Source: Aestuariivirga sp.
Lineage (GTDB): Bacteria; Pseudomonadota; Alphaproteobacteria; Rhizobiales; Aestuariivirgaceae
Reading direction: 5' to 3'
Length of the DNA stretch: 24,000 nucleotides
Assembly: GCF_046294715.1 (NCBI RefSeq)
Contig: NZ_JBKBKI010000001.1
Span: forward strand, 330,116-354,115
This document shows positions 2,579 to 18,139 of the stretch, piece by piece; the stretch's first letter is position 1, and each line of letters opens with the position of its first letter. The notes under the pieces are model-generated. The model was not told where the DNA came from, did no database searches, and worked only from the letters and a program-made list of their open reading frames with translations. A program made the translations under genes and the position numbers.

Positions 2579-4390
2579 ATGAACCTCGAAGAATTTCACC
2601 GCAACTTCCGTTCTGACGTCCAACAGACTGTCGCAGACCGTGTTCGCGCTGACGACGGCCCCTTTCCTTCCGAAGAGCTTGTCTTTTCGGAGACAGTCAT
2701 GGAACACGTGGCAGAAACAGTAAGTTGTGAGACACCGGTTGTATGCCACTGGAATGGCACGATCGGAAACGCGAAGCTTCGCATCACCGGTTATGCCCTT
2801 TCTTCTGATGAGACGGCTCTGGATCTCTTCGTTTCAAACTACTTCGGGACCGAGGCGATAAGTGACCTGACCGATGCAGGTGCAGTCGCAACCGCCACTG
2901 AAGGCATCCGCTTCCTGTTCCGCGCTGCAGGGGGAAACCTCGAGAGCCGCATAGATCCCACGCACCCGGTTCGTGATCTTGTTTCAACGATCCGGTCAAG
3001 ATGGGCTAACCTTGATCGTCTCCGCGTGTTTGTAATCACTGACGGGCGCACAAAGGCAAAGCGGTTCGCTGACAAGGAAGTCCACGGCAAAATGGTCGCT
3101 GTGGAGGCGATGGACATCGAACGCCTGTTCCGCCACACCGAAGGCAAGCCGAGAGATGAACTCTCGCTCAGCCTTGTCCAGTCGGTCGGACGCCCGCTCC
3201 CATGTGTTCATGTCCCCGATCCCGACGCTGACTATGAATACGTGCTCACAGCAATCCCGGGCCAGATCATCAGGGATCTGTACCTCCGGTTTGGCTCAAG
3301 ACTTCTTGAGGCAAATGTACGTACGTTCCTCGGTACGAAGAAAACTGTGAACAGGGGCATCATCGAAACTCTCAGGATGGAGCCCGAACACTTTCTGGCC
3401 TTCAACAATGGTCTGGTTCTTGTCTGTGACAGGGCAGAATTCGAACAGACCAAAGATGGATACATCGGTCTTTCATTTGTCAAGGGCCTGCAGATAGTTA
3501 ATGGCGGTCAGACCACTTCCACCATCTACTTTGCATCCCGCGATGACCGCACCATCGATCTCAGCCACGTCATGGTGCCTGCAAAGATAATCATTCTGAA
3601 GGGATCAGACGACGACGCCCGCGAGAAGCTGATCAGCAACGTATCGCGCTTTGCCAACAGCCAGAATGCAGTCAAACTGTCAGATCTGTCTGCAAACCGG
3701 CCATTCCATGTTCAGCTCGAGAAGCTGGCGAACGAAACCTGGTGCCCTGACGGCTCGGCGAGGTGGTTTTACGAACGTGCTGCAGGCGCATATAATGTGA
3801 TGTTGCTGCGTGAGGGCACCACTCCTGCTCGCCGCAACAAGCTGAAGGAGATTGTCTCCCCAAAGCGCAAGCTGACCAAGAACGATATCGCCAAGTTTCA
3901 CGAGGCCTGGCGTGGCAAACCCAGTCAGGTGGCAATGGCAGGTGAAAAGAATTTCGCAGCATTCATGGCCGCTCTGGATGAAGACCCCTCGATTGTGCCC
4001 AATCCCCTTGATACGCGCTGGTATCATTCGATGATAGCCAAGGTCATACTCTTCAAGTCCATAGAGAGCATGATCAAGACCAAAGAGGCAAAGACGGTTT
4101 TTCGGCAGGGTTGGGTCAATATTGCAACCTACGTTGTTTCGGTCGTGGCAGACCGATTAGGCGACCGGCTTGATCTTGAACAGATCTGGCTCCGTCAGGA
4201 CATTTCCTCGGGTCTCCGCGATCTGTTGTGGGAGTGGGCTCTGGTTGTGAATTCGGTCTTTGGCAGCATCGCTCCGGGACAGCAGATTTCGGAAGTAGCG
4301 AAGCGCATCGATACTTGGAACAGGGTGCGCGCTGCCACATTTCCAGAACCGAAGGCTAACATTCCGGAACTCAGACAGCCATCGCACTGA
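2579..4390 (+). CDS. AIPR (abortive-infection phage resistance) family protein
   Basis: 603-aa ORF starting 1 nt after the preceding TGA. The central block LAFNNGLVLVCD...GLQIVNGGQTTSTIY resembles the conserved core of AIPR (PF10592). Size and neighbourhood (Z1, PD-(D/E)XK) fit that family. Confidence 0.75.
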   Translation: MNLEEFHRNFRSDVQQTVADRVRADDGPFPSEELVFSETVMEHVAETVSCETPVVCHWNGTIGNAKLRITGYALSSDETALDLFVSNYFGTEAISDLTDAGAVATATEGIRFLFRAAGGNLESRIDPTHPVRDLVSTIRSRWANLDRLRVFVITDGRTKAKRFADKEVHGKMVAVEAMDIERLFRHTEGKPRDELSLSLVQSVGRPLPCVHVPDPDADYEYVLTAIPGQIIRDLYLRFGSRLLEANVRTFLGTKKTVNRGIIETLRMEPEHFLAFNNGLVLVCDRAEFEQTKDGYIGLSFVKGLQIVNGGQTTSTIYFASRDDRTIDLSHVMVPAKIIILKGSDDDAREKLISNVSRFANSQNAVKLSDLSANRPFHVQLEKLANETWCPDGSARWFYERAAGAYNVMLLREGTTPARRNKLKEIVSPKRKLTKNDIAKFHEAWRGKPSQVAMAGEKNFAAFMAALDEDPSIVPNPLDTRWYHSMIAKVILFKSIESMIKTKEAKTVFRQGWVNIATYVVSVVADRLGDRLDLEQIWLRQDISSGLRDLLWEWALVVNSVFGSIAPGQQISEVAKRIDTWNRVRAATFPEPKANIPELRQPSH

Positions 4391-4426
4391 TCAAGTTCGA
4401 CTTGCTGATCTGGCGATGAGCTGGTG

Positions 4427-5390
4427 TCATCGTAATTGGTGCCACGCTTTCCAGCGGTTGCGCAAAGCTTCCCGCGACGGCGATAGATTACCAAGATCTT
4501 CGTAGCCGTGTCGGCGTACGCGCGTATCAAGATGAATCGCCAATGTGTCAGGATGGATGACCATCAGGTTCAGGTCGAACAAGGTATGCATATCCGTCCG
4601 AAGTAGCAGTCCGTTCTCGGGGTGATTATCCTGCTCGCTCCGATATGGCCAGATGTGGGTAAGCGTCCGGTCTCGGCCGCCTTGTTTTGGTAACAACACA
4701 CGTGCCATTGTATCGCCTGATGAGCGTGTTTCGGAATAAGCGCTGCCCTCTTCGCGTGGCAATCTCTCGCAGCACTCGTCTCCTCTGATTAAGCGTCGAA
4801 GGTTCAAATGGCGCTTCGGCACTGTCCTCAGCTGCATCGTCCGGCTTCAGTGCAGAAGTCATCGCACATACTGACACAGCCTCGGCAGCCCTCTTGGAGC
4901 GAAGTTGTAGTAGTACCTCAAGCCCGGCAAGGTCCAGCTCCTCGATTGAGATCTGGTCATTTGGACGGAGAGCCAATCCTTTGAGCTGCTGTGCCGTAAT
5001 CCCCTCTGGCAGTTGTTGAAATGTGTCCCCGAAATCGGCGGTGTATTGGACTACGGCTTCCTCCATAGCTATTGGAGTACCGAATACATGCCCCTTTGCA
5101 CAGCGCCAGGGTGGGCTCATCGTGGGTCGCCGTTTGATGCTCGTAGTGTTACACTCCGGGCACCGCTGAATAATCTTGGTTCCGGGTTCTTCCGAGATGG
5201 AAACTATCCGGGCCAACCCCTGCGCCACTTCGCGGTCCCGGACTACGACGAGGTCTCCGGAAGCCAGCTGCCGATGATTCGCAACGTTGCTGTCGTAGCG
5301 GTACTGGCGCCCGGGCATATCGGCGTAACCAGTGTTACCTCCGTACTGCCGGTCGTCACCCAGAGTGATGATGCTCCAAGCCCTTGCCAT
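4427..5390 (-). pseudogene. HNH endonuclease (HNH_2-type, putative modification-dependent/Type IV-like), disrupted by a frameshift
   Basis: Two overlapping minus-strand ORFs (4626-5402 and 4427-4837) together read as one protein. ORF1 ends ...RQRLFRNTLIRRYNGTCVVT, the conserved block that precedes the HNH core. ORF2, in another frame, continues ...GGRDRTLTHIWPYRSEQDNHPENGLLLRTDMHTLFDLNLMVIHPD, the HNH core. The frame change must lie between 4667 and 4694, where an A4 run (plus-strand T4, 4685-4688) is present. The likely start is ATG at 5390 rather than TTG at 5402. Confidence 0.75.
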
Positions 5391-5497
5391 GCTCACTATC
5401 AATCACGTCTCTCGGGATGGAAATCGCCATGATCTCAATTCGGCCGCGACGTTGAAGTCTTTGCTTCCGCTTTCCCCCTTGTACTTCAAACAGCCGG

Positions 5498-5512
5498 GTT
5501 GATGATATCAAC
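5498..5512. promoter_or_regulatory. 15-bp palindrome GTTGAT-GAT-ATCAAC in the divergent HNH/methylase intergenic region; candidate operator
   Basis: Perfect 6-bp arms with a 3-bp spacer, read directly. It sits ~150 bp upstream of the methylase gene, whose product carries an N-terminal HTH. The function is inferred only. Confidence 0.25.
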
Positions 5513-5637
5513 GGGCGGATGCAGTGCAAACCCTCGCCAACCACAACAACAGGCAGAGAGCCTGCAGATCGACAGAACAGTGGACAAACATAGAACAATC
5601 TTTTGGCAGGCGGGAAGTTTTGTGACACCCTGTCCAA

Positions 5638-5656
5638 AATCATCCCAGAGATGATT
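5638..5656. promoter_or_regulatory. Inverted repeat AATCATC-N5-GATGATT immediately upstream of the methylase start; candidate operator or RBS-occluding hairpin
   Basis: Perfect 7-bp arms ending 4 nt before GTG 5661 (10 nt before ATG 5667). It shares the GATGAT half-site with the palindrome at 5498-5512. Confidence 0.3.
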
Positions 5657-5660
5657 CGGG

Positions 5661-6941
5661 GTGCCCATGCCGAAAAAACCAAAGACCCACCTGAAGGACC
5701 TGCGGGAACGCGCAGGCCTGAGCCTTGCCGAGGCCGCCTTCCGGGCCGGGTGCAGCGAGCGCCAGATGCGGCGCTACGAGGACGGCACGCACGAGCCCTC
5801 CCCGCTCTATGTGAAGCTCCTGGAAGAGGAGATAGCGCGACGCGCGAAGCACGAGGCAGGCCCGCCCGCCTTCACCTTCATTGACCTCTTCGCCGGTATC
5901 GGCGGCCTGCGGCTGGGCTTCGAGAGCATCGGCGGCAAATGCGTGTTCACCAGCGAGTGGGACAAGTATTGCAACGAAACCTACCGCGCCAACTTCCCAG
6001 GCGATGACCACGAGATTGCCGGTGATATCCGGCCTTATGGCGAGCACCCGGAGAAGATACCGAAGTTCGACGTTCTCCTGGCAGGTTTTCCCTGCCAGCC
6101 GTTCTCCATTGCAGGCGTCTCCAAGAAAAACGCCCTGGGGCGGCCGCACGGCTTCGATTGCGACAAGCAGGGCACGCTGTTTTTCGAGATCGAGCGGATT
6201 ATCAGGCACCACCGGCCCGCCGCCTTTCTCTTGGAGAACGTGAAGAACCTGGAGCGTCATGACAAGGGCCGCACCTTCGCGGTTATCATGGACACACTGA
6301 CCCGCGAGCTGGGCTACAGGACGGTGAAGCACCGCGTCATCAGCTCTGACCCCTGGGTGCCACAGAAGCGCGAGCGCATCTTCATCGCAGGCTTCAGGGA
6401 CGAGAGCAGCTTTACTTTCGAGAACTTCGAGCCGGATGGCCCGCACCCGCGCCTAGGCAGCATCCTGAACGGCCATAACCGTGTGCCGGAGAAGTACACT
6501 CTCACCGCCCATCTCTGGCAGTATCTCCAGGACTACAAGGAGAAGCACGCCAGCAAGGGCAATGGCTTCGGATGCAGCGTGTTCGGTCCCAACGATGTGA
6601 CCCGCACGCTGTCAGCCCGCTACTACAAGGACGGCTCTGAAATCCTCATCGAGCAGAAGGGTACCAGACCGCGCCGCCTCATGCCCGACGAGTGCGCAAG
6701 GCTTATGGGCTTTGTGCATCATGACGGCCGCGACTGGATTATCCCTGTATCCGATACCCAGGCGTACAAGCAGTTCGGCAATGCCGTGGTGGTGCCGGTG
6801 GTGAAGGTCGTGGCGCGGCACATGGAGCCGCATATCCTGGAGGCTGTGGCGCGTGACCGGAAGAAGGTGACCCCCTTCCCTGCCCCGCCGAAGGCGGAGG
6901 CCGTGAAGGCGAAGCCGAAGAAGAAGGCCGCGCATGGCTGA
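5661..6941 (+). CDS. dcm: DNA (cytosine-5)-methyltransferase, Dcm/M.EcoRII-like, with an N-terminal XRE-type HTH and a Lys/Ala-rich C-terminal tail
   Basis: All canonical C5-MTase motifs are present: FIDLFAGIGG (I), GFPCQPFSIAG (IV, catalytic Cys), ENVKNL (VI) and QFGNAVVVP (X). Long blocks match my recollection of E. coli Dcm (SEWDK, GVSKKNALGRPHGF, QGTLFF, TRTLSARYYKDGSEILI, RPRRLMPDECARLMGF, IPVSDTQAYKQFGN). Residues ~8-60 (LKDLRERAGLSLAEAAFRAGCSERQMRRYEDG) form an HTH. The start is either GTG 5661 or ATG 5667. Confidence 0.95.
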   Translation: MPMPKKPKTHLKDLRERAGLSLAEAAFRAGCSERQMRRYEDGTHEPSPLYVKLLEEEIARRAKHEAGPPAFTFIDLFAGIGGLRLGFESIGGKCVFTSEWDKYCNETYRANFPGDDHEIAGDIRPYGEHPEKIPKFDVLLAGFPCQPFSIAGVSKKNALGRPHGFDCDKQGTLFFEIERIIRHHRPAAFLLENVKNLERHDKGRTFAVIMDTLTRELGYRTVKHRVISSDPWVPQKRERIFIAGFRDESSFTFENFEPDGPHPRLGSILNGHNRVPEKYTLTAHLWQYLQDYKEKHASKGNGFGCSVFGPNDVTRTLSARYYKDGSEILIEQKGTRPRRLMPDECARLMGFVHHDGRDWIIPVSDTQAYKQFGNAVVVPVVKVVARHMEPHILEAVARDRKKVTPFPAPPKAEAVKAKPKKKAAHG

Positions 6942-11123: not shown

Positions 11124-11510
11124 TCATTTCTGTATGATCAGGTCACGAAATGCTACAAAGGCGCGATTGGTCTCTGCGGCGCGACGTGCCTTCTCCTCCA
11201 GGACTTCGATCAACGACACCTTGCGTGAGAGGACCTCGTACAGATCAAGCCCGTCGGCGCAAATCAGATTGGTTTGTCGTCCACGCGAAAATGCCTCCAA
11301 CCCGTCGGCCGAGAAGCCGGAATTGCTGACGAACAGACCGCGCGACCAAGAGGCTTTGCCGGCGACCTTCCCAGAGAACGTCATCAAGTCGGCGAATCCA
11401 ATCTGCGGCCCATGCCACTTAGCTTCCACCAAATAAGTCTGTCCCTGCAGATTAAAGCTGCCGTCGATCTGCTCGCCAACGAGGCGAAACGCACCGCGTG
11501 GCGCCAGCAT
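11124..11510 (-). pseudogene. C-terminal fragment of an Mrr-like (PD-(D/E)XK) restriction endonuclease domain protein
   Basis: [70 protein letters not shown] is a D...E-x-K Mrr_cat-type core. An in-frame stop sits 5 codons upstream of the first Met, and the N-terminal part normally found in this family is absent. Confidence 0.6.
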
Positions 11511-12273
11511 CGACCCGCGTCGGAGTTAGGCCGAGTGTGAGCGGAACGGCGTGCTGCTCACCCGCGATGGCGATCAGGCGGTCGCTGATCCGCTGCGCGG
11601 TAGCAACCACCTCGGCATGGCCGGCAAGCTCGGCTTGCGCCTCGTTTACTTGATCTTGGATTTCGTCGCGAGCGTCTTCGTCAAGCGAAGTGGCCAACTG
11701 TTCGATCAACGGCCTCAGCGGCGAATTTCGCCAGCTCGACAGGTCTTTCTCGGCGTCGCGCAGCGCCACCTGAACGTCGAGCGGTAGCATCCGGCGCAAG
11801 GATGACCCGATCGCCATATCGGGATCGTCGCCGCCGAAAATGACATACTCGTAGTCGGCCAGACTTTCGGGATTACGGCCGAGATTTCCCTTTGGCTGGA
11901 AGCGGTAAGTGAGACGCGCGACCATGGGCGGGCCTGGGTCCACTACGCAGTCGTTAAGGTGCGCCATCAGGCGCGGGTCGCCGGTGAAATCGGTCAGATC
12001 GACAGAGATTTCGATCGTCTCGCCTAGCTTGTCCTCGTTCAGGACGTCCCAGAAGTGTTCGAGGCCGAGTTGGCGATCACGCTCCGACAGCCCAGGATCG
12101 AGGATCAATTGCAAGGCGCGAATGAAGTTGCTTTTCCCAACCTTGTTTTCACCGACAATGACAATGCTGGAGCCAGTCTTTACTTCAAGGGCCGAAAAAT
12201 TGGCGAAGTTCTTGATCGTAATCGATGATATGTGCAATGCATTACACTCTATGTTCGGAAACTGAGACAACAT
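11452..12273 (-). pseudogene. N-terminal fragment of an OLD-family/ABC-type (AAA_15-like) ATPase
   Basis: ITIKNFANFSALEVKTGSSIVIVGENKVGKSNFIRALQLILDP is the N-terminal beta-strand plus Walker A of OLD/Gabija-GajA-like ATPases. ALRDAEKDLSSWRNSPLRPLIEQL is the typical mid-region. The ABC signature, Walker B and any nuclease domain are missing, and the ORF ends in out-of-context sequence that overlaps the Mrr fragment. Confidence 0.6.
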
Positions 12274-12330
12274 ACCCCGAAGTAAACTGGCGCGAATAGG
12301 TTTTTCGATAAGACTTCGTATTGACGCTGG

Positions 12331-12470
12331 ACTTCCTTCTTAAAGGAAGCATTGCTGTTGATCACTGCGTTCCAAAACCTAGACGACAACAGCAGAGGAC
12401 GCCCGCTATTGCGGGCTTAGGGTGGTACGAGGGCTGGATTGGCCAGCCATCGAGCTCAAGGAGCACCACC
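12331..12470 (+). promoter_or_regulatory. Structured leader upstream of DUF3489 gene (copy 1)
   Basis: Hairpin 1: CTTCCT(12332-12337)/AGGAAG(12344-12349). Hairpin 2: GCCCGC-TATT-GCGGGC (12401-12416). GGTGGT (12421-12426) is complementary to ACCACC (12465-12470), which abuts the ATG. Hairpin 3: GGCTGG(12432-12437)/CCAGCC(12443-12448). The same architecture recurs at 15249-15375. Confidence 0.4.
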
Positions 12471-12710
12471 ATGGCAAAGAAGGCAATCAAGTCCAAGAAG
12501 CAGGCAGCGAACAAGACCCAGCAGATCCTCGGATTGCTCCAGCGCCCAAATGGCGCATCGATCCCCGAACTGATCAAAGCCACTGAATGGCAAGCGCACA
12601 GCGTGCGCGGGTTCCTGGCCGGGACGGTCAGGAAGAAGATGGGCCTGGATATCACCAGCAGCCGGGAGGATGGCAAGGACCGCCGTTATCGCATCGCCGG
12701 AGCCCAGTGA
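12471..12710 (+). CDS. DUF3489 domain protein (module 1)
   Basis: AAGGAG Shine-Dalgarno before ATG 12471. LLQRPNGASIPELIKATEWQAHSVRGFLAGTVRKKMGLDITSSREDGKDRRYRI matches the GWQxHSVRGFxxGxxxKKxGL...RxYRI signature I associate with DUF3489 (PF11994). The 12321 start in the ORF track covers the non-coding leader. Confidence 0.75.
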   Translation: MAKKAIKSKKQAANKTQQILGLLQRPNGASIPELIKATEWQAHSVRGFLAGTVRKKMGLDITSSREDGKDRRYRIAGAQ

Positions 12711-13288
12711 TGGCTTGTCAGAAGCAACATGGCATCGGCAAGGCAGCGCCCGACACAGAGGTTGGGCGCCAGTTGCTGCAGCAGATCCACATGCTGCAGG
12801 ACAAGAGTATTGCCCAGTTAAAGTCACAGTGGAAGGAGTTGATCAGTTCAGAGCCGCCGCGGCATGCGAAGCGGAGTTTCCTGACGCAGACGATTGCGTG
12901 GGAGCTCAAGGCAAATACCTTCGGCAAGCTGAAGCCCGGCATCCACCGTCAACTCCTGCAAGCGGGTCGTGGTGGAGGAGATGAGAAGCCGCTGGTGTCA
13001 GAGTTTGCGTCTCCGATCTTGCGCCCCGGAGTAAAGCTGATCCGGGTCTGGAAGGGCGTGACCCACCATGTGCTGGTGACGGAGGATGGCTTCCTCTGGC
13101 AGGAGCGCTCATGGCGCAGCCTGTCGGTCATCGCCCGAGAGATCTCCGGCACGCCGTGGTCCGGGCCGGTATTCTTCGGTCTGAAGAAGTCGAAGACTGT
13201 TCGTGACGGGATGCGCAGCACTCTCGGGGTCGATGACGGCATTGGGGACCATTCTTTGGGCATCGATAAGGTGGCGTCCCATGGCTAG
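12710..13288 (+). CDS. DUF2924 domain protein (module 1)
   Basis: ATG 12710 overlaps the upstream TGA (TGATG). LKSQWKELISSEPP...RSFLTQTIAWELKANTFGKL...LRPGVKLIRVWKGVTHHVLVTEDGFLWQERSWRSLSVIAREISGTPWSGPVFFGL is the DUF2924 (PF11149) pattern. Confidence 0.75.
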   Translation: MACQKQHGIGKAAPDTEVGRQLLQQIHMLQDKSIAQLKSQWKELISSEPPRHAKRSFLTQTIAWELKANTFGKLKPGIHRQLLQAGRGGGDEKPLVSEFASPILRPGVKLIRVWKGVTHHVLVTEDGFLWQERSWRSLSVIAREISGTPWSGPVFFGLKKSKTVRDGMRSTLGVDDGIGDHSLGIDKVASHG

Positions 13289-14778
13289 CCCACCCAAGAC
13301 CGTCCGCTGTGCCATCTATACCCGAAAGTCTTCCGAAAAAGGCCTTGAGCAGGACTTCAACTCGCTGGATGCCCAGCATGAAGCCTGCGAAGCCTACATC
13401 AAGAGCCAGAAGCACGAGGGCTGGGAAGCCGTTCATCACAAGACGGGCCGCCTGACGCTCAATGTTCTGCTCTCCTTCGCTCAGTTCGAGCGCGAGGTCA
13501 CCGGCGAGCGCATCCGGGGCAAGATCGCAGCCTCCAAGAAGAAGGGCATGTGGATGGGAGGCTGCGTCCCGCTGGGTACCGGGTCGAGAAGCGGGAACTG
13601 GTCATCGACGAGCAGGAGGCCCAGCATATCCGGACGGTCTACGAGAAGTACCTCGAGCTTGGCTCGGTCCGCTCCGTAAAGGATGCGGTCGATACCTTGG
13701 GCATTACCAGCCGCCCCACCTCAAGGACGTCTGGCAGCTTTCTGGGCCGTGGTCACATCTACCGCATCCTGACCAACCCCATCTACATGGGCAAGATCTC
13801 GCACAAGGGTGTCTTGAGCGAGGGTCAGCACAAGGCGATCATTGAGCCCAAGACTTGGCAGAAGGTGCAGGAGATGCTGCAGGCCAACAATGCCCGGGAG
13901 CGGGACCAGCCCAATGCTGCGGTATCGAGCCCTCTCGCCAGCATCATCTTTGATGAACAAGGTAAGCGGCTCACCCCCAGCCATGCGGTCAAGGGTGGCA
14001 GGCGGTACCGGTACTACATCTCGAATGTTCTCGTGCGCGAGCCGGGCAACACAAGCGGCATCAGATTATCGGCGCCCGAGATTGAGACTGCGGTCTGCCA
14101 GATCATACACGGCGTTCTACGCGATACCCAGCAGGTGGCATCGATCATCGCAGCGCCCGATCCATCGCCATCCGAAATTGAAGAGTTTGTTGGCCGAGCC
14201 AAGACGTTCGTCAACAGCATCACCAAGAAGCCAGCCTATGAACTGCTGATCGGCCTCAAGCCCGCGTTGGCCCATATCGTTATTGGGACGCAGCAGATCA
14301 TCCTGTCGCTAAAGCGAAGCGCCTTGGAACCATTGTCCGTGGCGCACCAGGACAACAGTCTCACGGAGAACTCATCGCAGTATCAAGCGCGACGAATGAC
14401 CTCCTCACCCTCTCACTGCCGATCCGCGTAGGACGGCGCGGTCGCGAGACTCGCATCATCCTCCAAAGTGGCCAAACCCGGCAGCGGCCTGTCGACCAGT
14501 CACTCGTCACTATGATCGCGCGGGGCTATGCCTGGTGGCACCAGATTGCCGTTGGCGAGGTGAACTCAATGCTAGACATCGCCAAGCGTGAGAAGCTCAC
14601 CGACAGCTATGTGAGCCGCATCGTCACGCTCGGGTTCCTCGCGCCAGACATCATTACTGCAATTCTGGAAGGCACCGCCCCTGCAGAACTGACAGCCAAC
14701 CGACTGCAGGCGCTTCATGATCTCCCGCTCGACTGCCCGAGCCAGCGGCAGATCCTCGGGTTTGCAGCTGCGGGATAA
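13281..14778 (+). pseudogene. Large serine recombinase, decayed (internal deletion of the catalytic domain plus at least two frameshifts)
   Basis: The N-terminus VRCAIYTRKSSEKGLEQDFNSLDAQHEACEAYIKSQKHEGW parallels the intact paralog. It then jumps straight to GRLTLNVLLSFAQFERE, so ~80 aa are missing at ~13425-13447. A frame change occurs at ~13571-13580 (GGCVPLG | YRVEKRELVIDE). The reading frame breaks again near 14400-14511. The C-terminal homology (YVSRIVTLGFLAPDIITAILEG) resumes in ORF 14512-14778. Confidence 0.8.
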
Positions 14779-15248
14779 GTCGCAAGACCATCCGGTGAGT
14801 GAAGAGGCAGCTTTCGAACATGGCGCTGCCTTCACACGTTCCGGTCTCAATATCTGGCTGGGATCGACGACCGCCTGGCCTATAAATCCGAAGAGCGCAC
14901 CAGCTTCTCGCTTTCGATGAATTGCTAGGCAGTTGAACGATAAATGTCGTGGAACCCGATGCTCATGACTTTCACTGACTGCATCACCCCATGATGGTTT
15001 GCATCGGAGATCTTGACTGCCGAAACGCCAAACTAAGAATTCCGAGCAGATCGGCGCGAAAATCCAAGTTGTCTCGGGTGCGGTTCGAAGACCCCGATGC
15101 TAGCCGACGCAAAGCAGGCCCAATCCGCAGGCTTTTTGCGCTACCGACGATACACCTAAGGAATTTATGAAAACACTAGGAATTAATGACGGACCAGATG
15201 GAATTCGAACAGAAGGTACAGTCCCTCTTTCTTCCAGCTTTCCACTCG

Positions 15249-15375
15249 ACTTCCTGCCGAAAGGAAGCATGTGTGGGGACACGACGCCCGGCCAATTGGC
15301 TGACAGCGTCGATAGCCCGCCCCAAGCGGGCTTGCGGTGGTGGGAGGCTTTGGCCTCCGGAACAGGAGAACCACC
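15249..15375 (+). promoter_or_regulatory. Structured leader upstream of DUF3489 gene (copy 2)
   Basis: Hairpin 1: CTTCCT(15250-15255)/AGGAAG(15262-15267). Hairpin 2: GCCCGC-CCCAA-GCGGGC (15315-15331). GGTGGT (15336-15341) is complementary to ACCACC (15370-15375). Hairpin 3: GGAGGC(15343-15348)/GCCTCC(15353-15358). Compared with copy 1, hairpin 3 has three compensatory base-pair changes. Confidence 0.4.
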
Positions 15376-15681
15376 ATGACCATCAAGAAATCTGGCTCAA
15401 CCTCGAAGCAAACCAAGAATTCAGCGCCTGGCACTCGTTCGAAGCAACCCGCCAAGAAGCCGCCTCCCGCACCTCTGAGCAAGTCCCAGACCATCCGGGC
15501 GCTACTAGCTCGTCCGCAGGGAGCGACCACCTCGGAACTCTCGGAAGCTACCGGCTGGCAGGTTCATAGCGTGCGAGGATACCTGTCGAGGACGTTGAAG
15601 AAAAAGCTTGGTCTCATGCTTGATTCGTCCAAGGACGAAGGTGGCCGCCGTTATTGGCTCACCGAAGCTGTCCGCTCATGA
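15376..15681 (+). CDS. DUF3489 domain protein (module 2)
   Basis: CAGGAG Shine-Dalgarno before ATG 15376. It has a Lys/Pro-rich N-terminus followed by LLARPQGATTSELSEATGWQVHSVRGYLSRTLKKKLGLMLDSSKDEGGRRYWL. Confidence 0.8.
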   Translation: MTIKKSGSTSKQTKNSAPGTRSKQPAKKPPPAPLSKSQTIRALLARPQGATTSELSEATGWQVHSVRGYLSRTLKKKLGLMLDSSKDEGGRRYWLTEAVRS

Positions 15682-16127
15682 GTAGGACGGAAGAGCTCTT
15701 GGCAGGACTAGCCGGGGCGGATCTGCAGAGCCTGCGGGACGAGTGGAAGCGTCTTTCTGACGACGACGCTCCGCCCCCCATGAGCAAGGAACTGCTCAGG
15801 CTTGCCATCGCCTACAGGAGACAGGAACAGGAGTTCGGCGGCTTGAGCCGCCGGACCTCCACCCGGCTGAGGGCACTGCGCAATGGTGGCAATACGAGTG
15901 TGCACCTGAGTGGCGAGGCCTTGCCCCTGAAGCCGGGCGTCAAGCTGCTGAGGGAGTGGCAGGGCAAGGTTCATGAAGTTCTGGCTCTGGAGGACGGCCG
16001 ATTTGCCTACGGTGGAAAAGTCTGGAGATCGCTGAGCGAGATTGCCCGGGAGATCACCGGAGTGCGCTGGTCTGGTCCCCGATTTTTTGGGACCCGGGAT
16101 CGGAAGAGGACAGGGCCCCATGGCTGA
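15678..16127 (+). CDS. DUF2924 domain protein (module 2)
   Basis: ATG 15678 overlaps the upstream stop (ATGA). LRDEWKRL...LLRLAIAYRRQEQEFGGLS...LKPGVKLLREWQGKVHEVLALEDGRFAYGGKVWRSLSEIAREITGVRWSGPRFFG. Confidence 0.8.
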   Translation: MSRTEELLAGLAGADLQSLRDEWKRLSDDDAPPPMSKELLRLAIAYRRQEQEFGGLSRRTSTRLRALRNGGNTSVHLSGEALPLKPGVKLLREWQGKVHEVLALEDGRFAYGGKVWRSLSEIAREITGVRWSGPRFFGTRDRKRTGPHG

Positions 16128-17814
16128 GCGTCCAGTCATTCGCCGCTGTGCGATCTATACCCGGAAGTCCTCCGAGGAAGGGTTGGATCAGGCCTACAAC
16201 TCCCTTGCGGCGCAGCGAGATGCCTGTACGGCCTACATCGCCAGCCAGAAGCATGAGGGCTGGACCTTGGTCCCAAAGGCCTACGACGATGGCGGCTTTT
16301 CAGGCGGCAATCTCCAGCGGCCTGCGCTTGAGGAACTGATGGAGGATATCAGGAAGGGCGAGATCGATATCATCGTGGTCTACAAGATCGACCGGCTTAC
16401 CCGATCCCTAGCAGACTTCGCCAAGCTCACGGAGGTCCTAGACCGGCACAACGTGTCCTTTGTGGCCGTCACCCAGCAGTTCAACACCTCGACATCAATG
16501 GGTAGACTAACGCTCAACGTGTTGCTCTCCTTTGCCCAGTTCGAGCGTGAAGTGGCCGGCGAGCGCATCCGCGACAAGATCGCCGCTTCCAAGAGGCGGG
16601 GTATGTGGATGGGGGGCCATCCGCCGCTTGGCTATGAGGTGAAGGCGAGAAAGCTGGTCGTCGTTCCGGAGGAGGCCAAGACCGTACGACACCTCTTCCG
16701 TCGCTACCTGGACCTTCGTTCCGTGCAGCTCCTGCGCAGGGAGCTGGATAGCTCCGGGACACGATCGAAACGCAAGGTCTTGCAGGATGGCTCGGTGGTG
16801 GGTGGTGTGACCTTCTCCCGGGGCGCCCTGTACACGATTCTCAAAAACCCGCTTTACCGGGGCCGGATCCAACACAAGGGCGAGTGTTTTCCCGGGGAGC
16901 ACGAGCCAATCATCGAGGAGAAGCTGTTTTCGGAGGTCCAGCGGGTCTTGGAACAGCAGGGGCCCGGAGATGAGGCTCGCCGCAAGCTGGCCTCACCTGC
17001 CCTGCTCAAGGGGCTGGTGTTCGACGCTCAAGGCGAGCGGCTGCAACCAACCCATTGCAGCAAGGGGAGAACGAAGTACCGGTACTACACTTCGAAGTCG
17101 TTGTTGAAGGAGGGGAGGCCCCAGGCGACGAGCGGATTCCGGGTTCCCGCTCCTGACCTCGAGATGATCGTCATCCGTTCACTGGCGGGCCACTTGAGAA
17201 ACCAGCAATGGGTTGCTGCTCTCATACACAGTCCCAGAGACCTTCCGCCCGCACTGCAAAAGGCACAGGGCATTGCGGTCGATATCGAGAGGCAGCCGAT
17301 CATTAACACCGGGATGATCGGCGACCTCGTTACCCGCATCACCATGGATAAGAGAAACTTACATCTCAGGATCAACAGGGACCGGCTTGTCGCCCTCCTC
17401 ACCGGCCGGCACCCCGAGAAGACACAGTCGCCGCTGAATAGTCTGCCCCTCGAGATCGACATCACCAGCCACCTTCTCCGGTGTGGGAAGCAGGTACGCC
17501 TGGTGATCGACGAAACCGGGGGCCAGCCAGATTCCGACCCTCACCCCCGCCTTGTCGGCGAAATCCTGAGAGCCCGTCGGTGGTTCGATGCGCTCTCATC
17601 CGGAGAGGTCCCGACCATTGCAGCGCTAGCGCAAGCCGAGGGCGTCTCGGCGTCCTACATCAGCCTGAAAATCAGCCTCGCCTTCCTGGCACCAGACATC
17701 GTTGAGACCATCATCGACGGCATGCAACCGATGTCGCTCACGCCGGAACGGCTCAAGAAGGCCTGCCCACTGCCCGCTTCCTGGGAAGAGCAGCGCGCCT
17801 TGCTGCTGGCCTGA
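16120..17814 (+). CDS. Large serine recombinase (resolvase/invertase-type catalytic domain plus recombinase and zinc-ribbon-like C-terminal region), apparently intact
   Basis: ATG 16120 overlaps the DUF2924 stop by 8 nt. RCAIYTRKSSEEGLDQAYNSLAAQ contains the catalytic Ser region. Also present are IDIIVVYKIDRLTRS, GRLTLNVLLSFAQFEREVAGERIRDKIAASKRRG and the recombinase domain GGHPPLGYEV. Length is 564 aa. Confidence 0.9.
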   Translation: MAERPVIRRCAIYTRKSSEEGLDQAYNSLAAQRDACTAYIASQKHEGWTLVPKAYDDGGFSGGNLQRPALEELMEDIRKGEIDIIVVYKIDRLTRSLADFAKLTEVLDRHNVSFVAVTQQFNTSTSMGRLTLNVLLSFAQFEREVAGERIRDKIAASKRRGMWMGGHPPLGYEVKARKLVVVPEEAKTVRHLFRRYLDLRSVQLLRRELDSSGTRSKRKVLQDGSVVGGVTFSRGALYTILKNPLYRGRIQHKGECFPGEHEPIIEEKLFSEVQRVLEQQGPGDEARRKLASPALLKGLVFDAQGERLQPTHCSKGRTKYRYYTSKSLLKEGRPQATSGFRVPAPDLEMIVIRSLAGHLRNQQWVAALIHSPRDLPPALQKAQGIAVDIERQPIINTGMIGDLVTRITMDKRNLHLRINRDRLVALLTGRHPEKTQSPLNSLPLEIDITSHLLRCGKQVRLVIDETGGQPDSDPHPRLVGEILRARRWFDALSSGEVPTIAALAQAEGVSASYISLKISLAFLAPDIVETIIDGMQPMSLTPERLKKACPLPASWEEQRALLLA

Positions 17815-17883
17815 ACTCCACTCCAATAGTCAGTCTTTATCGCGACGCATCTATTGGAAGCGGTTCTACCCCCCTATCAGGAT

Positions 17884-17897
17884 GCGCAGCACTGCGC
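17884..17897. repeat. Perfect inverted repeat GCGCAG-CA-CTGCGC between the recombinase gene and tRNA-Gln
   Basis: 6-bp arms around a central dinucleotide, read directly. Assigning it as a candidate recombinase site is pure inference. Confidence 0.2.
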
Positions 17898-18014
17898 GTC
17901 ATAACCGGAATTGGGGGCAGCAGAGACTTTCCGAGTGAAATCCACCAGGCGGAGCGCCAAGTTCGTCTCTCCGGCATGCCTGCCGCCCCCTGTCCGGTCC
18001 AAGCCCCGGAAATG

Positions 18015-18030
18015 TCGGAGAGTTCTCCGA
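18015..18030. repeat. Perfect inverted repeat TCGGAGA-GT-TCTCCGA, 35 bp from the 3' end of tRNA-Gln
   Basis: 7-bp arms around a central dinucleotide, read directly. It could be an att-site core or a weak tRNA-Gln terminator hairpin. Neither is demonstrated. Confidence 0.2.
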
Positions 18031-18064
18031 CAGCTGTCATTCTCATGGTTCGACGTGGATGGAT

Positions 18065-18139
18065 TGGCTGGGGCGGGAGGGATCGAACCTCCGAATGGCG
18101 GAATCAAAATCCGCTGCCTTACCGCTTGGCGACGCCCCA
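18065..18139 (-). tRNA. tRNA-Gln (anticodon UUG), CCA encoded
   Basis: The reverse complement is UGGGGCGUCGCCAAGCGGUAAGGCAGCGGAUUUUGAUUCCGCCAUUCGGAGGUUCGAUCCCUCCCGCCCCAGCCA. It has a 7-bp acceptor stem, an anticodon stem GCGGA/UCCGC with loop UU-UUG-AU, and a GGUUCGAUCC T-arm. It is near-collinear with E. coli tRNA-Gln. Confidence 0.95.

Follow-up and report, generated by a model that had tools for sequence, protein, structure and literature searches.

The window analyzed here is a 24,000-nt stretch of the Aestuariivirga sp. contig NZ_JBKBKI010000001.1 (positions 330,116 to 354,115, forward strand), and it carries two copies of an operon that opens with a DUF3489 gene. In the intact copy (copy 2), DUF3489 is followed by DUF2924 and a large serine recombinase, a gene order proposed by the first-pass annotation and with which the Pfam assignments agree; the operon of copy 1 has decayed, with frameshifts and a split recombinase. 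Each DUF3489 gene is preceded by a leader composed of hairpin 1 (H1), hairpin 2 (H2) and a third hairpin (H3), the last lying within a long-range helix (Pc) that also encloses the Shine–Dalgarno sequence (SD) and whose downstream strand, ACCACC, directly abuts the start codon in both copies. Re-reading of the sequence recovered every one of these elements in both leaders and in the same order, and the three pairs that differ between the H3 stems of copies 1 and 2 are compensatory, as had been claimed. Homologous leaders indicate that H2, Pc and H3 are under selection as RNA structure and that H1 belongs to a 5' box that probably acts as a transcription signal in the DNA.

The 23-nt pattern GACTTCCTN6AGGAAGCAT that contains H1 is found at exactly two places in the window, where 100 shuffles predict 0.00 occurrences, and both leaders fold more stably than their dinucleotide shuffles (z = −3.9 and −2.7). 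Between H1 and H2, copy 2 carries a middle hairpin whose sequence and length differ among relatives and which is absent in some of them (L051, L078). The open reading frames (ORFs) drawn across the leaders are not conserved, in agreement with the first-pass annotation, and the codon-like pattern at H1 is interrupted by stops in relatives. A protein-coding basis for the conservation of H1 (a TSxxKEALL frame with wobble-like variation) was considered and rejected, as stops occur in or near it (L012, L049 and others) and no consistent ORF is found.

To assess the structured 3' part, a covariance model (CM) was seeded with copy 2 and with locus L001 of Aestuariivirga litoralis KCTC 52945, using H2, Pc and H3, and was iterated once (model R2); the relatives numbered about 40 and came from other genomes and viral contigs. 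Two sets were retrieved independently, one of 100 loci found through the protein and one of 14 distinct sequences found through the 5' motif only. Among the 100 protein-retrieved loci, the model gave 25 matches, all of them on the sense strand and ending at the predicted start of the first gene. In this set, 89.5% of cells were paired, compared with 35–44% when the partners were slid; double-change cells numbered 94 against 15–25, the covariation score was 0.504 against 0.06–0.08, and 19 of the 20 pairs showed a double change. For four of the five measures none of 500 shuffles attained the value observed, and for the fifth a single shuffle did. The motif-retrieved set behaved alike: 87.6% of cells paired (28–50% when slid), 46 double-change cells (1–9), a covariation score of 0.402 (at most 0.07) and double changes in 17 of the 20 pairs. 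Double changes were present in six of the seven pairs of H2, with 91–93% of cells paired, in all seven pairs of H3 (89–93%), and all six pairs of Pc covary. No other structural element is conserved as widely as H2, which leads into an invariant GGCU context on its 3' side; the loops of H2 and H3 range from 4 to more than 20 nt among relatives. Alignment of the raw upstream sequences with MAFFT and RNAalifold gave no meaningful structure, and realignment to the covariance model was needed.

Because CM-derived alignments lean towards the model, Pc was also examined by a pairing-blind test, in which the 9 nt ending at the conserved GGU were paired with the 14 nt preceding the start codon. Strands from the same leader paired at −7.6 kcal/mol and swapped strands at −5.2 kcal/mol (z = −5.0, 0 of 20000 permutations), and the comparison held after removal of near-duplicates (z = −4.4). 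The compensated versions of this helix include GGTGGT/ACCACC, GAGGTG/CACCTC, GGCTGG/CCAGCC, GGGTGG/CCACCC, TCGGT/ACCGA, CCTCGGT/ACCGAGG and CGCCTC/GAGGCG. Paired columns hold 27 G·U against 8 A·C combinations, an excess that favours RNA of the sense strand, and in 39 homologous leader modules the mean z-score of the minimum free energy (MFE) was −2.4, with 69% below −2. The selection on structure proposed by the first-pass annotation thus holds for H2, H3 and the SD-enclosing helix that abuts the AUG, and the covariation test on wider homologs was passed in both sets. Judged from these patterns, the H2/Pc/H3 features fit a sense-strand RNA structure and not double-stranded palindromic protein sites. 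The model also matches directly upstream of DUF2924 in loci where DUF3489 is absent or lies elsewhere (Table 1), so the structured leader accompanies whichever gene comes first in the recombinase operon and not DUF3489 as such.

H1 gave a different picture when 51 non-redundant relatives were aligned on its sequence. The conserved unit is a bipartite motif, an A/T tract followed by (T/C)C-ACT[CG]GACTTC-N13-GC[AG]TnnnTG, in which the 13-nt spacer is exact. The inner pairs of H1 are kept in 18, 20 and 25 of the 51 relatives, which is about chance; a 5-bp H1 is possible in just nine of them, variants such as GCAAG facing CTTCC are common and uncompensated, and the segment shows no gain in stability over controls with a shuffled spacer (p = 0.28). 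The three outer pairs are uninformative because they join invariant boxes. As a structural element H1 was therefore not upheld: its arms belong to a motif of fixed geometry, and the "hairpin" is an accidental by-product of two conserved boxes. The proposal that H1 and H2 are palindromic protein-binding sites survives in part, H1 standing as a DNA-level signal with no requirement for a palindrome, and H2 failing as a palindrome by its covarying pairs, its G·U pairs and loops of 4 to about 20 nt.

Sequence and context suggest that this 5' box is probably a promoter or operator. Across the 51 instances, the −35-like element reads T(T/C)nACT, and A and T are invariant at the −11-like and −7-like positions of RAGCRT. 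Two promoter registers can be laid over the box, T(T/C)nACT-N18-RAGCRT and T[CG]GACT-N17-RTnnnT, the latter being equivalent to GGAC(T)-N16-CGT in the manner of extracytoplasmic-function (ECF) sigma factors. Low-GC viral contigs hold up to five boxes each, in both orientations, and every box is followed after 4–63 nt by an ORF of its own (encoding a DUF3489-like protein, DUF2924 or one of several small proteins), with TTGACT, TTAACT or TTTACT as the upstream hexamer. In five IMG/VR contigs of 39–45% GC (L179, L227, L235, L261, L196), the ACTGGACTTC-N13-GCRT box was observed 2–5 times per contig with conserved flanks, and there it looks like an element-wide regulon signal. Of 120 pattern matches, 72 are situated directly upstream of DUF2924-recombinase, often without DUF3489. 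Two independent families of small ORFs start 11–12 nt past the −10-like T and lack a Shine–Dalgarno sequence, an arrangement that suggests leaderless or near-leaderless mRNAs. A conserved small helical ORF (60–80 aa) was seen upstream of DUF3489 in some elements, with its own copy of the box (Table 1), and some of these ORFs likewise begin 11–12 nt past the −10-like T and lack an SD. Hosts of the box range in GC content from 40% to 70%, and this breadth suggests a reader encoded by the element. Two other identities were rejected: a sigma-54 reading of GG...TTGC has the wrong spacing on inspection, and an att site of the large serine recombinase would be expected once per element at the recombination junction, whereas the box is found in as many as five copies on one contig, ahead of different genes, and in the window is set back about 60 nt from the homology boundary.

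Table 1. Coordinates of the genes, leader elements and element ends, in window numbering unless a locus is named
Feature	Coordinates	Strand	Remarks
Copy 2
DUF3489 gene	15376–15681	+	Pfam; predicted winged helix and basic disordered tail; start ATG 15376–15378
DUF2924 gene	Pfam 15654–16127; ATG 15678	+	ATGA overlap with DUF3489 at 15678–15681
Large serine recombinase gene	Pfam 16042–17814; ATG 16120	+	8-nt overlap at 16120–16127
5' box	15234–15276	+	A/T-rich tract; TCCACT 15241–15246 (−35-like); GACTTC 15248–15253; 13-nt spacer; GCATGTGTGG 15267–15276
−10-like AAGCAT	15265–15270	+	
H1	15250–15255 / 15262–15267	+	CTTCCT / AGGAAG; 15250–15267 lies within the box
Variable middle hairpin	15282–15311	+	CGACGC...GCGTCG and an inner hairpin
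H2	15314–15332	+	AGCCCGC / loop CCCAA / GCGGGCU; core GCCCGC 15315–15320 / GCGGGC 15326–15331
Pc	15336–15341 / 15370–15375	+	GGTGGT / ACCACC
H3	15343–15348 / 15353–15358	+	GGAGGC / loop TTTG / GCCTCC; within Pc
SD	15364–15368	+	AGGAG
tRNA-3'-end-like 24-mer	15187–15210	+; sequence in reverse orientation	TGACGGACCAGATGGAATTCGAAC; left terminus of the intact unit; homology to L001 from 15185
Copy 1
DUF3489 gene	12471–12710	+	Pfam; ATG 12471–12473
5' box	12321–12358	+	GCTG GACTTC (GACTTC 12330–12335); 13-nt spacer; GCATTGCTGT 12349–12358
−10-like AAGCAT	12347–12352	+	
H1	12332–12337 / 12344–12349	+	12332–12349 lies within the box
H2	12401–12406 / 12411–12416	+	
Pc	12421–12426 / 12465–12470	+	GGTGGT / ACCACC
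H3	12432–12437 / 12443–12448	+	GGCTGG / CCAGCC
SD	12458–12463	+	
Structured 3' module	12401–12473	+	MFE structure has all three helices; CM match 50.8 bits
Decayed tRNA-3'-end-like sequence	12288–12308	+	Left end of the decayed tandem copy
Other loci
CM match upstream of DUF2924, L223	1523–1597		
CM match upstream of DUF2924, L231	971–1036		
CM match upstream of DUF2924, L156	5314–5388		
CM match upstream of DUF2924, L167	2445–2519		
Small ORF with box, L083	2237		
Small ORF with box, L085	2189		
Small ORF with box, L084	2439 and 904		
Small ORF with box, L173, L225, L153			

Taken together, we consider with moderate confidence that the leader is a composite control region, in which a 5' transcription signal at the DNA level is joined to a structured 5' untranslated region (UTR) that cages the SD and AUG. 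The 5' part of about 45 bp would supply the signal through its A/T tract, T(T/C)nACT, GGACTTC, fixed spacer and RAGCRT (alternatively RTnnnT), and H1 would probably lie upstream of the transcription start. Transcripts are predicted to begin at about 15277–15281 (about 12359–12363 in copy 1), giving a 5' UTR of 60–110 nt with the variable hairpin (15282–15311 in copy 2), H2 and then a three-way arrangement of Pc and H3 around the SD, where GGUGGU and the AUG-touching ACCACC would close around both. Such a cage would make the ribosome-binding region costly to open, so that initiation at the first gene is damped or gated, and the effect may reach DUF2924 and the recombinase by translational coupling, since the genes overlap (by ATGA and by 8 nt). 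Opening of the region from −14 to +5 costs on average 9.1 kcal/mol, compared with 7.1 kcal/mol when the upstream sequence is shuffled, the native value being higher in 22 of 25 leaders (p = 0.0004); for the SD–AUG region of copy 2, the values are 7.5 and 5.0 kcal/mol, respectively. In some members the SD lies in Pc itself (L059, L077); in the window copies it falls in an internal loop, with the six bases immediately next to the AUG engaged in pairing. We infer that the structure lowers or regulates translation of the coupled operon. A bound factor or a switch is possible because the structure is conserved beyond what occlusion would need, as in the invariant GGCU after H2 and in GGU(R).

Several observations weigh against this composite reading. 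On the RNA side, the native upstream sequence adds only about 2 kcal/mol of occlusion over GC-rich shuffles, and the W-type leaders hold the SD in an internal loop and not in a helix. The pair counts for the local hairpins are inflated by the fitting of the CM-derived alignments to the structure, and one subfamily (L003, L013, L016, L022, L045, L067) keeps H2 but has, in place of the cage, a short hairpin that does not engage the SD. On the side of the box, a scan for the standard sigma-70 consensus does not call it, the near-invariant GGACTTC is not accounted for by sigma-70 rules, and the ECF-like register fits about equally well. In a subfamily from soil metagenomes, the spacer and a segment immediately beyond the right box are complementary, with compensating changes in four versions, and the family-wide self-versus-cross test of the spacer gave z = −2.8, which suggests that the spacer can be part of an RNA; moreover, the homology between soil elements of 95% identity stops precisely where the box begins, at its first base. 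The right box itself showed no significant pairing with downstream sequence (z = −1.45). The soil family that displays the spacer complementarity comprises L121–L137, and one member, L124, has boxes at 967 and 1251, a separation of 284 nt that would fit insertion of one element into the leader of another.

The spacer complementarity also bears on a rather unlikely alternative, in which a start of transcription upstream of H1 places everything from H1 to the AUG in a single structured 5' UTR and H1 serves as a 5'-terminal hairpin or as an RNA motif recognized by protein or RNA and shared by several element genes. Transcription of the spacer in some families would agree with it, as would the appearance of H1 in the MFE structure of both window copies and the constant compatibility of its three outer pairs (U·G in 31 of 51). 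Against it, however, the inner pairs of H1 behave as expected by chance with no excess of stability and a 5-bp stem is rare, conservation runs past the hairpin on both sides with fixed spacing and an upstream A/T tract, and some ORFs start 11–12 nt past the box and lack an SD.

An improbable variant would assign the cage to read-through transcripts only, as in fold-back inhibition of the IS10/IS50 type, the element's own transcripts starting inside the cage and being freely translated. The location of the leader at the very edge of the mobile unit (described below) suits this idea, and in the short leaders of L083–L085 the 5' strand of Pc (TTCGTC) overlaps the right box and may be outside the native transcripts. 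However, in most members, both window copies included, this strand lies 60–70 nt downstream of the box, no second conserved promoter-like signal occurs within the cage, and in copy 2 the Pc 5' strand lies downstream of the start as predicted (about 15277). It is very doubtful that the hairpins are DNA palindromes for dimeric element proteins (DUF3489, DUF2924 or the recombinase) acting as operators or accessory recombination sites. DUF3489 is a predicted winged helix resembling MarR-type DNA binders, the region is 30–190 bp from the element end, and Tn3/gamma-delta offers the precedent of a serine recombinase whose binding sites overlap promoters; nevertheless, the arms of H2 and H3 covary around loops of widely different length and the Pc strands stand 30–60 nt apart, neither geometry being suited to a dimer, G·U exceeds A·C, and the 5' box is not a palindrome and has many copies on a contig at a distance from recombinase genes.

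Equally doubtful is an RNA thermometer or other physical sensor, comparable to ROSE or fourU, whose cage would melt with heat or stress and free translation of the recombinase operon. The multi-hairpin 5' UTR with the ribosome-binding region in its 3'-most structure and the mainly alphaproteobacterial hosts recall such systems, but no ROSE or other thermometer model matches at E ≤ 10, Pc is usually a perfect GC-rich helix of 5–7 bp stacked on a GC-rich H3 without the typical mismatches or bulges, and DUF3489, DUF2924 and the recombinase are not heat-shock genes. Finally, H2 as an attenuator or terminator limiting read-through into the operon is highly improbable. The hairpin is stable, GC-rich and the most conserved structure, and its 3' flank is invariant, but just two or three U (CUU or CUC) come after it before G-rich sequence, the terminator scan calls none, and the 3' flank is the start of the Pc 5' strand.

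The composite leader was compared with known systems. In Rfam 15, a search of the window at gathering scores returned two tRNAs only, and at E ≤ 10 the leaders gave nothing beyond sub-threshold noise, in line with the first-pass view that this is not a named RNA family. The one weak match, to the Agrobacterium small RNA Atu_Ti3 on the minus strand at 15214–15281, reached 18.6 bits where the gathering score is 50 (E about 0.1) and is probably due to chance; no DUF3489 homologs were found on Agrobacterium plasmids. The IS200 leader stem-loop and the IS10 and IS50 fold-back structures are SD- or AUG-occluding leaders of transposase or recombinase genes, and the likeness consists in the end of a mobile element, RNA over the translation-initiation region and an expected low, buffered expression of the recombinase. 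Here, in contrast, H2 is combined with a long-range helix inside which a hairpin and the SD lie, the operon comprises a large serine recombinase and two accessory genes, and the 5' strand apparently lies within the element's own transcript, with no sequence or Rfam relationship. The ROSE and fourU leaders of Alphaproteobacteria are similar in having several hairpins, the last of which holds the ribosome-binding site, whereas the present leader matches no model, has a perfect GC-rich closing helix and precedes unrelated genes, and the ROSE U(U/C)GCU anti-SD with its bulged G is not opposite the SD in either window leader. The res region of Tn3/gamma-delta likewise places the transcription signal of a recombinase operon tens of bp from the recombination site, where occupancy could affect expression; unlike it, the putative signal box here is also present in several copies before other genes, away from recombination sites. 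Like ECF-sigma and sigma-70 promoters, the box has two conserved blocks whose separation is constant, an A/T tract upstream of them and gene starts at distances from a few to about 110 nt; neither register, however, is close to a known consensus, and no sigma-70 spacer shows conservation approaching that of GGACTTC. The conserved pairing over the SD–AUG region that marks a generic translation-occluding 5' UTR was found by Pc covariation, by the self-versus-cross comparison and by opening energy. The class is known, as leaders that occlude the ribosome-binding site of mobile-element recombination genes and as ROSE-like multi-hairpin leaders, while the family is absent from Rfam 15.

The leader sits at the edge of what is probably a small mobile unit. 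Window positions 15185–18070 align with positions 2807–5693 of locus L001 at 88% identity over 2890 bp, whereas the flanks are unrelated. The 2.9 kb unit contains only the three genes DUF3489, DUF2924 and the large serine recombinase, and its right end joins the 3' end of a tRNA-Gln gene (18065–18139, minus strand). In at least 15 of 60 scanned GTDB loci, a minus-strand tRNA of varying species is located 2.6–2.9 kb downstream of the DUF3489 gene. No direct repeats of the tRNA were found at the other end of the element, as is expected for a serine recombinase, so the element ends were inferred from pairwise homology boundaries. A tRNA-3'-end-like 24-mer at the left terminus of the intact unit (Table 1), where the tRNA scan called no tRNA, may be either an attP/attL arm or a displaced tRNA end. 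Copy 1 (about 12287–15184) is an older, decayed tandem insertion, so the window holds one intact and one decayed copy, with the leader about 30–190 bp inside the element terminus. The unit looks like a minimal tRNA-targeting integrative element, of which no description was found.

Further features were observed at the ends of the unit. TCGAAC is positioned about 17–22 nt from the junction on the element side (15187–15210) and about 13–18 nt on the tRNA side (18065–18090), and the right end (18044–18070) carries the inverted GTTCGA. This offset of 4–5 bp resembles the attP/attB geometry of large serine recombinases and points to the T-loop sequence as the motif that is recognized. A perfect 18-bp palindrome (GTCGGAGAGTTCTCCGAC, 18014–18031), located about 35 nt from the right end, is identical in L001 despite differing neighbours. 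On the other side of the tandem, minus-strand ORFs with an Mrr_cat restriction endonuclease and an AAA_15/AbiEii-like ATPase (11124–12273) abut the left end of the decayed copy; a defence island that occupied this tRNA hotspot may have left them behind.

In one-genome-per-species GTDB, at least 588 DUF3489-DUF2924-serine-recombinase loci were confirmed, in addition to many viral contigs; the hosts are mainly Alphaproteobacteria. Close relatives (80%) exist, and a metagenome scan with a single protein returned distant relatives only among the matches listed. A homolog on a Ralstonia megaplasmid has a different upstream region and no annotation. A full-text literature search yielded four papers in which DUF3489 or DUF2924 is named and no functional study of either, and searches on the Pfam accessions and on serine recombinase combined with tRNA gave nothing relevant. 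The AlphaFold2 model of DUF3489 reached a predicted local distance difference test score (pLDDT) of 73, and its top Foldseek matches were TFE-alpha and MarR-type regulators (probability 0.99–1.0, E about 0.02–0.2), by which DUF3489 may be regarded as a candidate reader of the 5' box.

This candidate role would permit an extension of the composite reading that we put forward only tentatively. The leader could be the RNA half of a self-contained circuit, in which DUF3489 or DUF2924 reads GGACTTC and H2/Pc/H3 form a regulated switch. Such a switch would respond to a protein or to the excision state and would time the recombinase, in place of a static damper, and its carrier would be a previously undescribed class of minimal tRNA-inserting serine-recombinase elements.

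For sequence-only reading, the H1 result carries a caution, namely that identical stems with free loops can be promoter boxes and not a hairpin. The DUF3489-DUF2924-serine-recombinase module is widespread yet uncharacterized, and the present analysis provides for it a covariation-supported RNA motif that could found an Rfam-type family, together with a putative transcription signal of 45 bp whose conservation extends over very different hosts. The by-products, a compact tRNA-targeting recombinase unit and a putative cross-phylum transcription box, may outrank the leader itself in interest. Large serine recombinases are sought-after tools for genome engineering, and knowing how a compact natural element controls such a recombinase, and that it targets a generic tRNA 3' end, could guide the mining and use of these enzymes.

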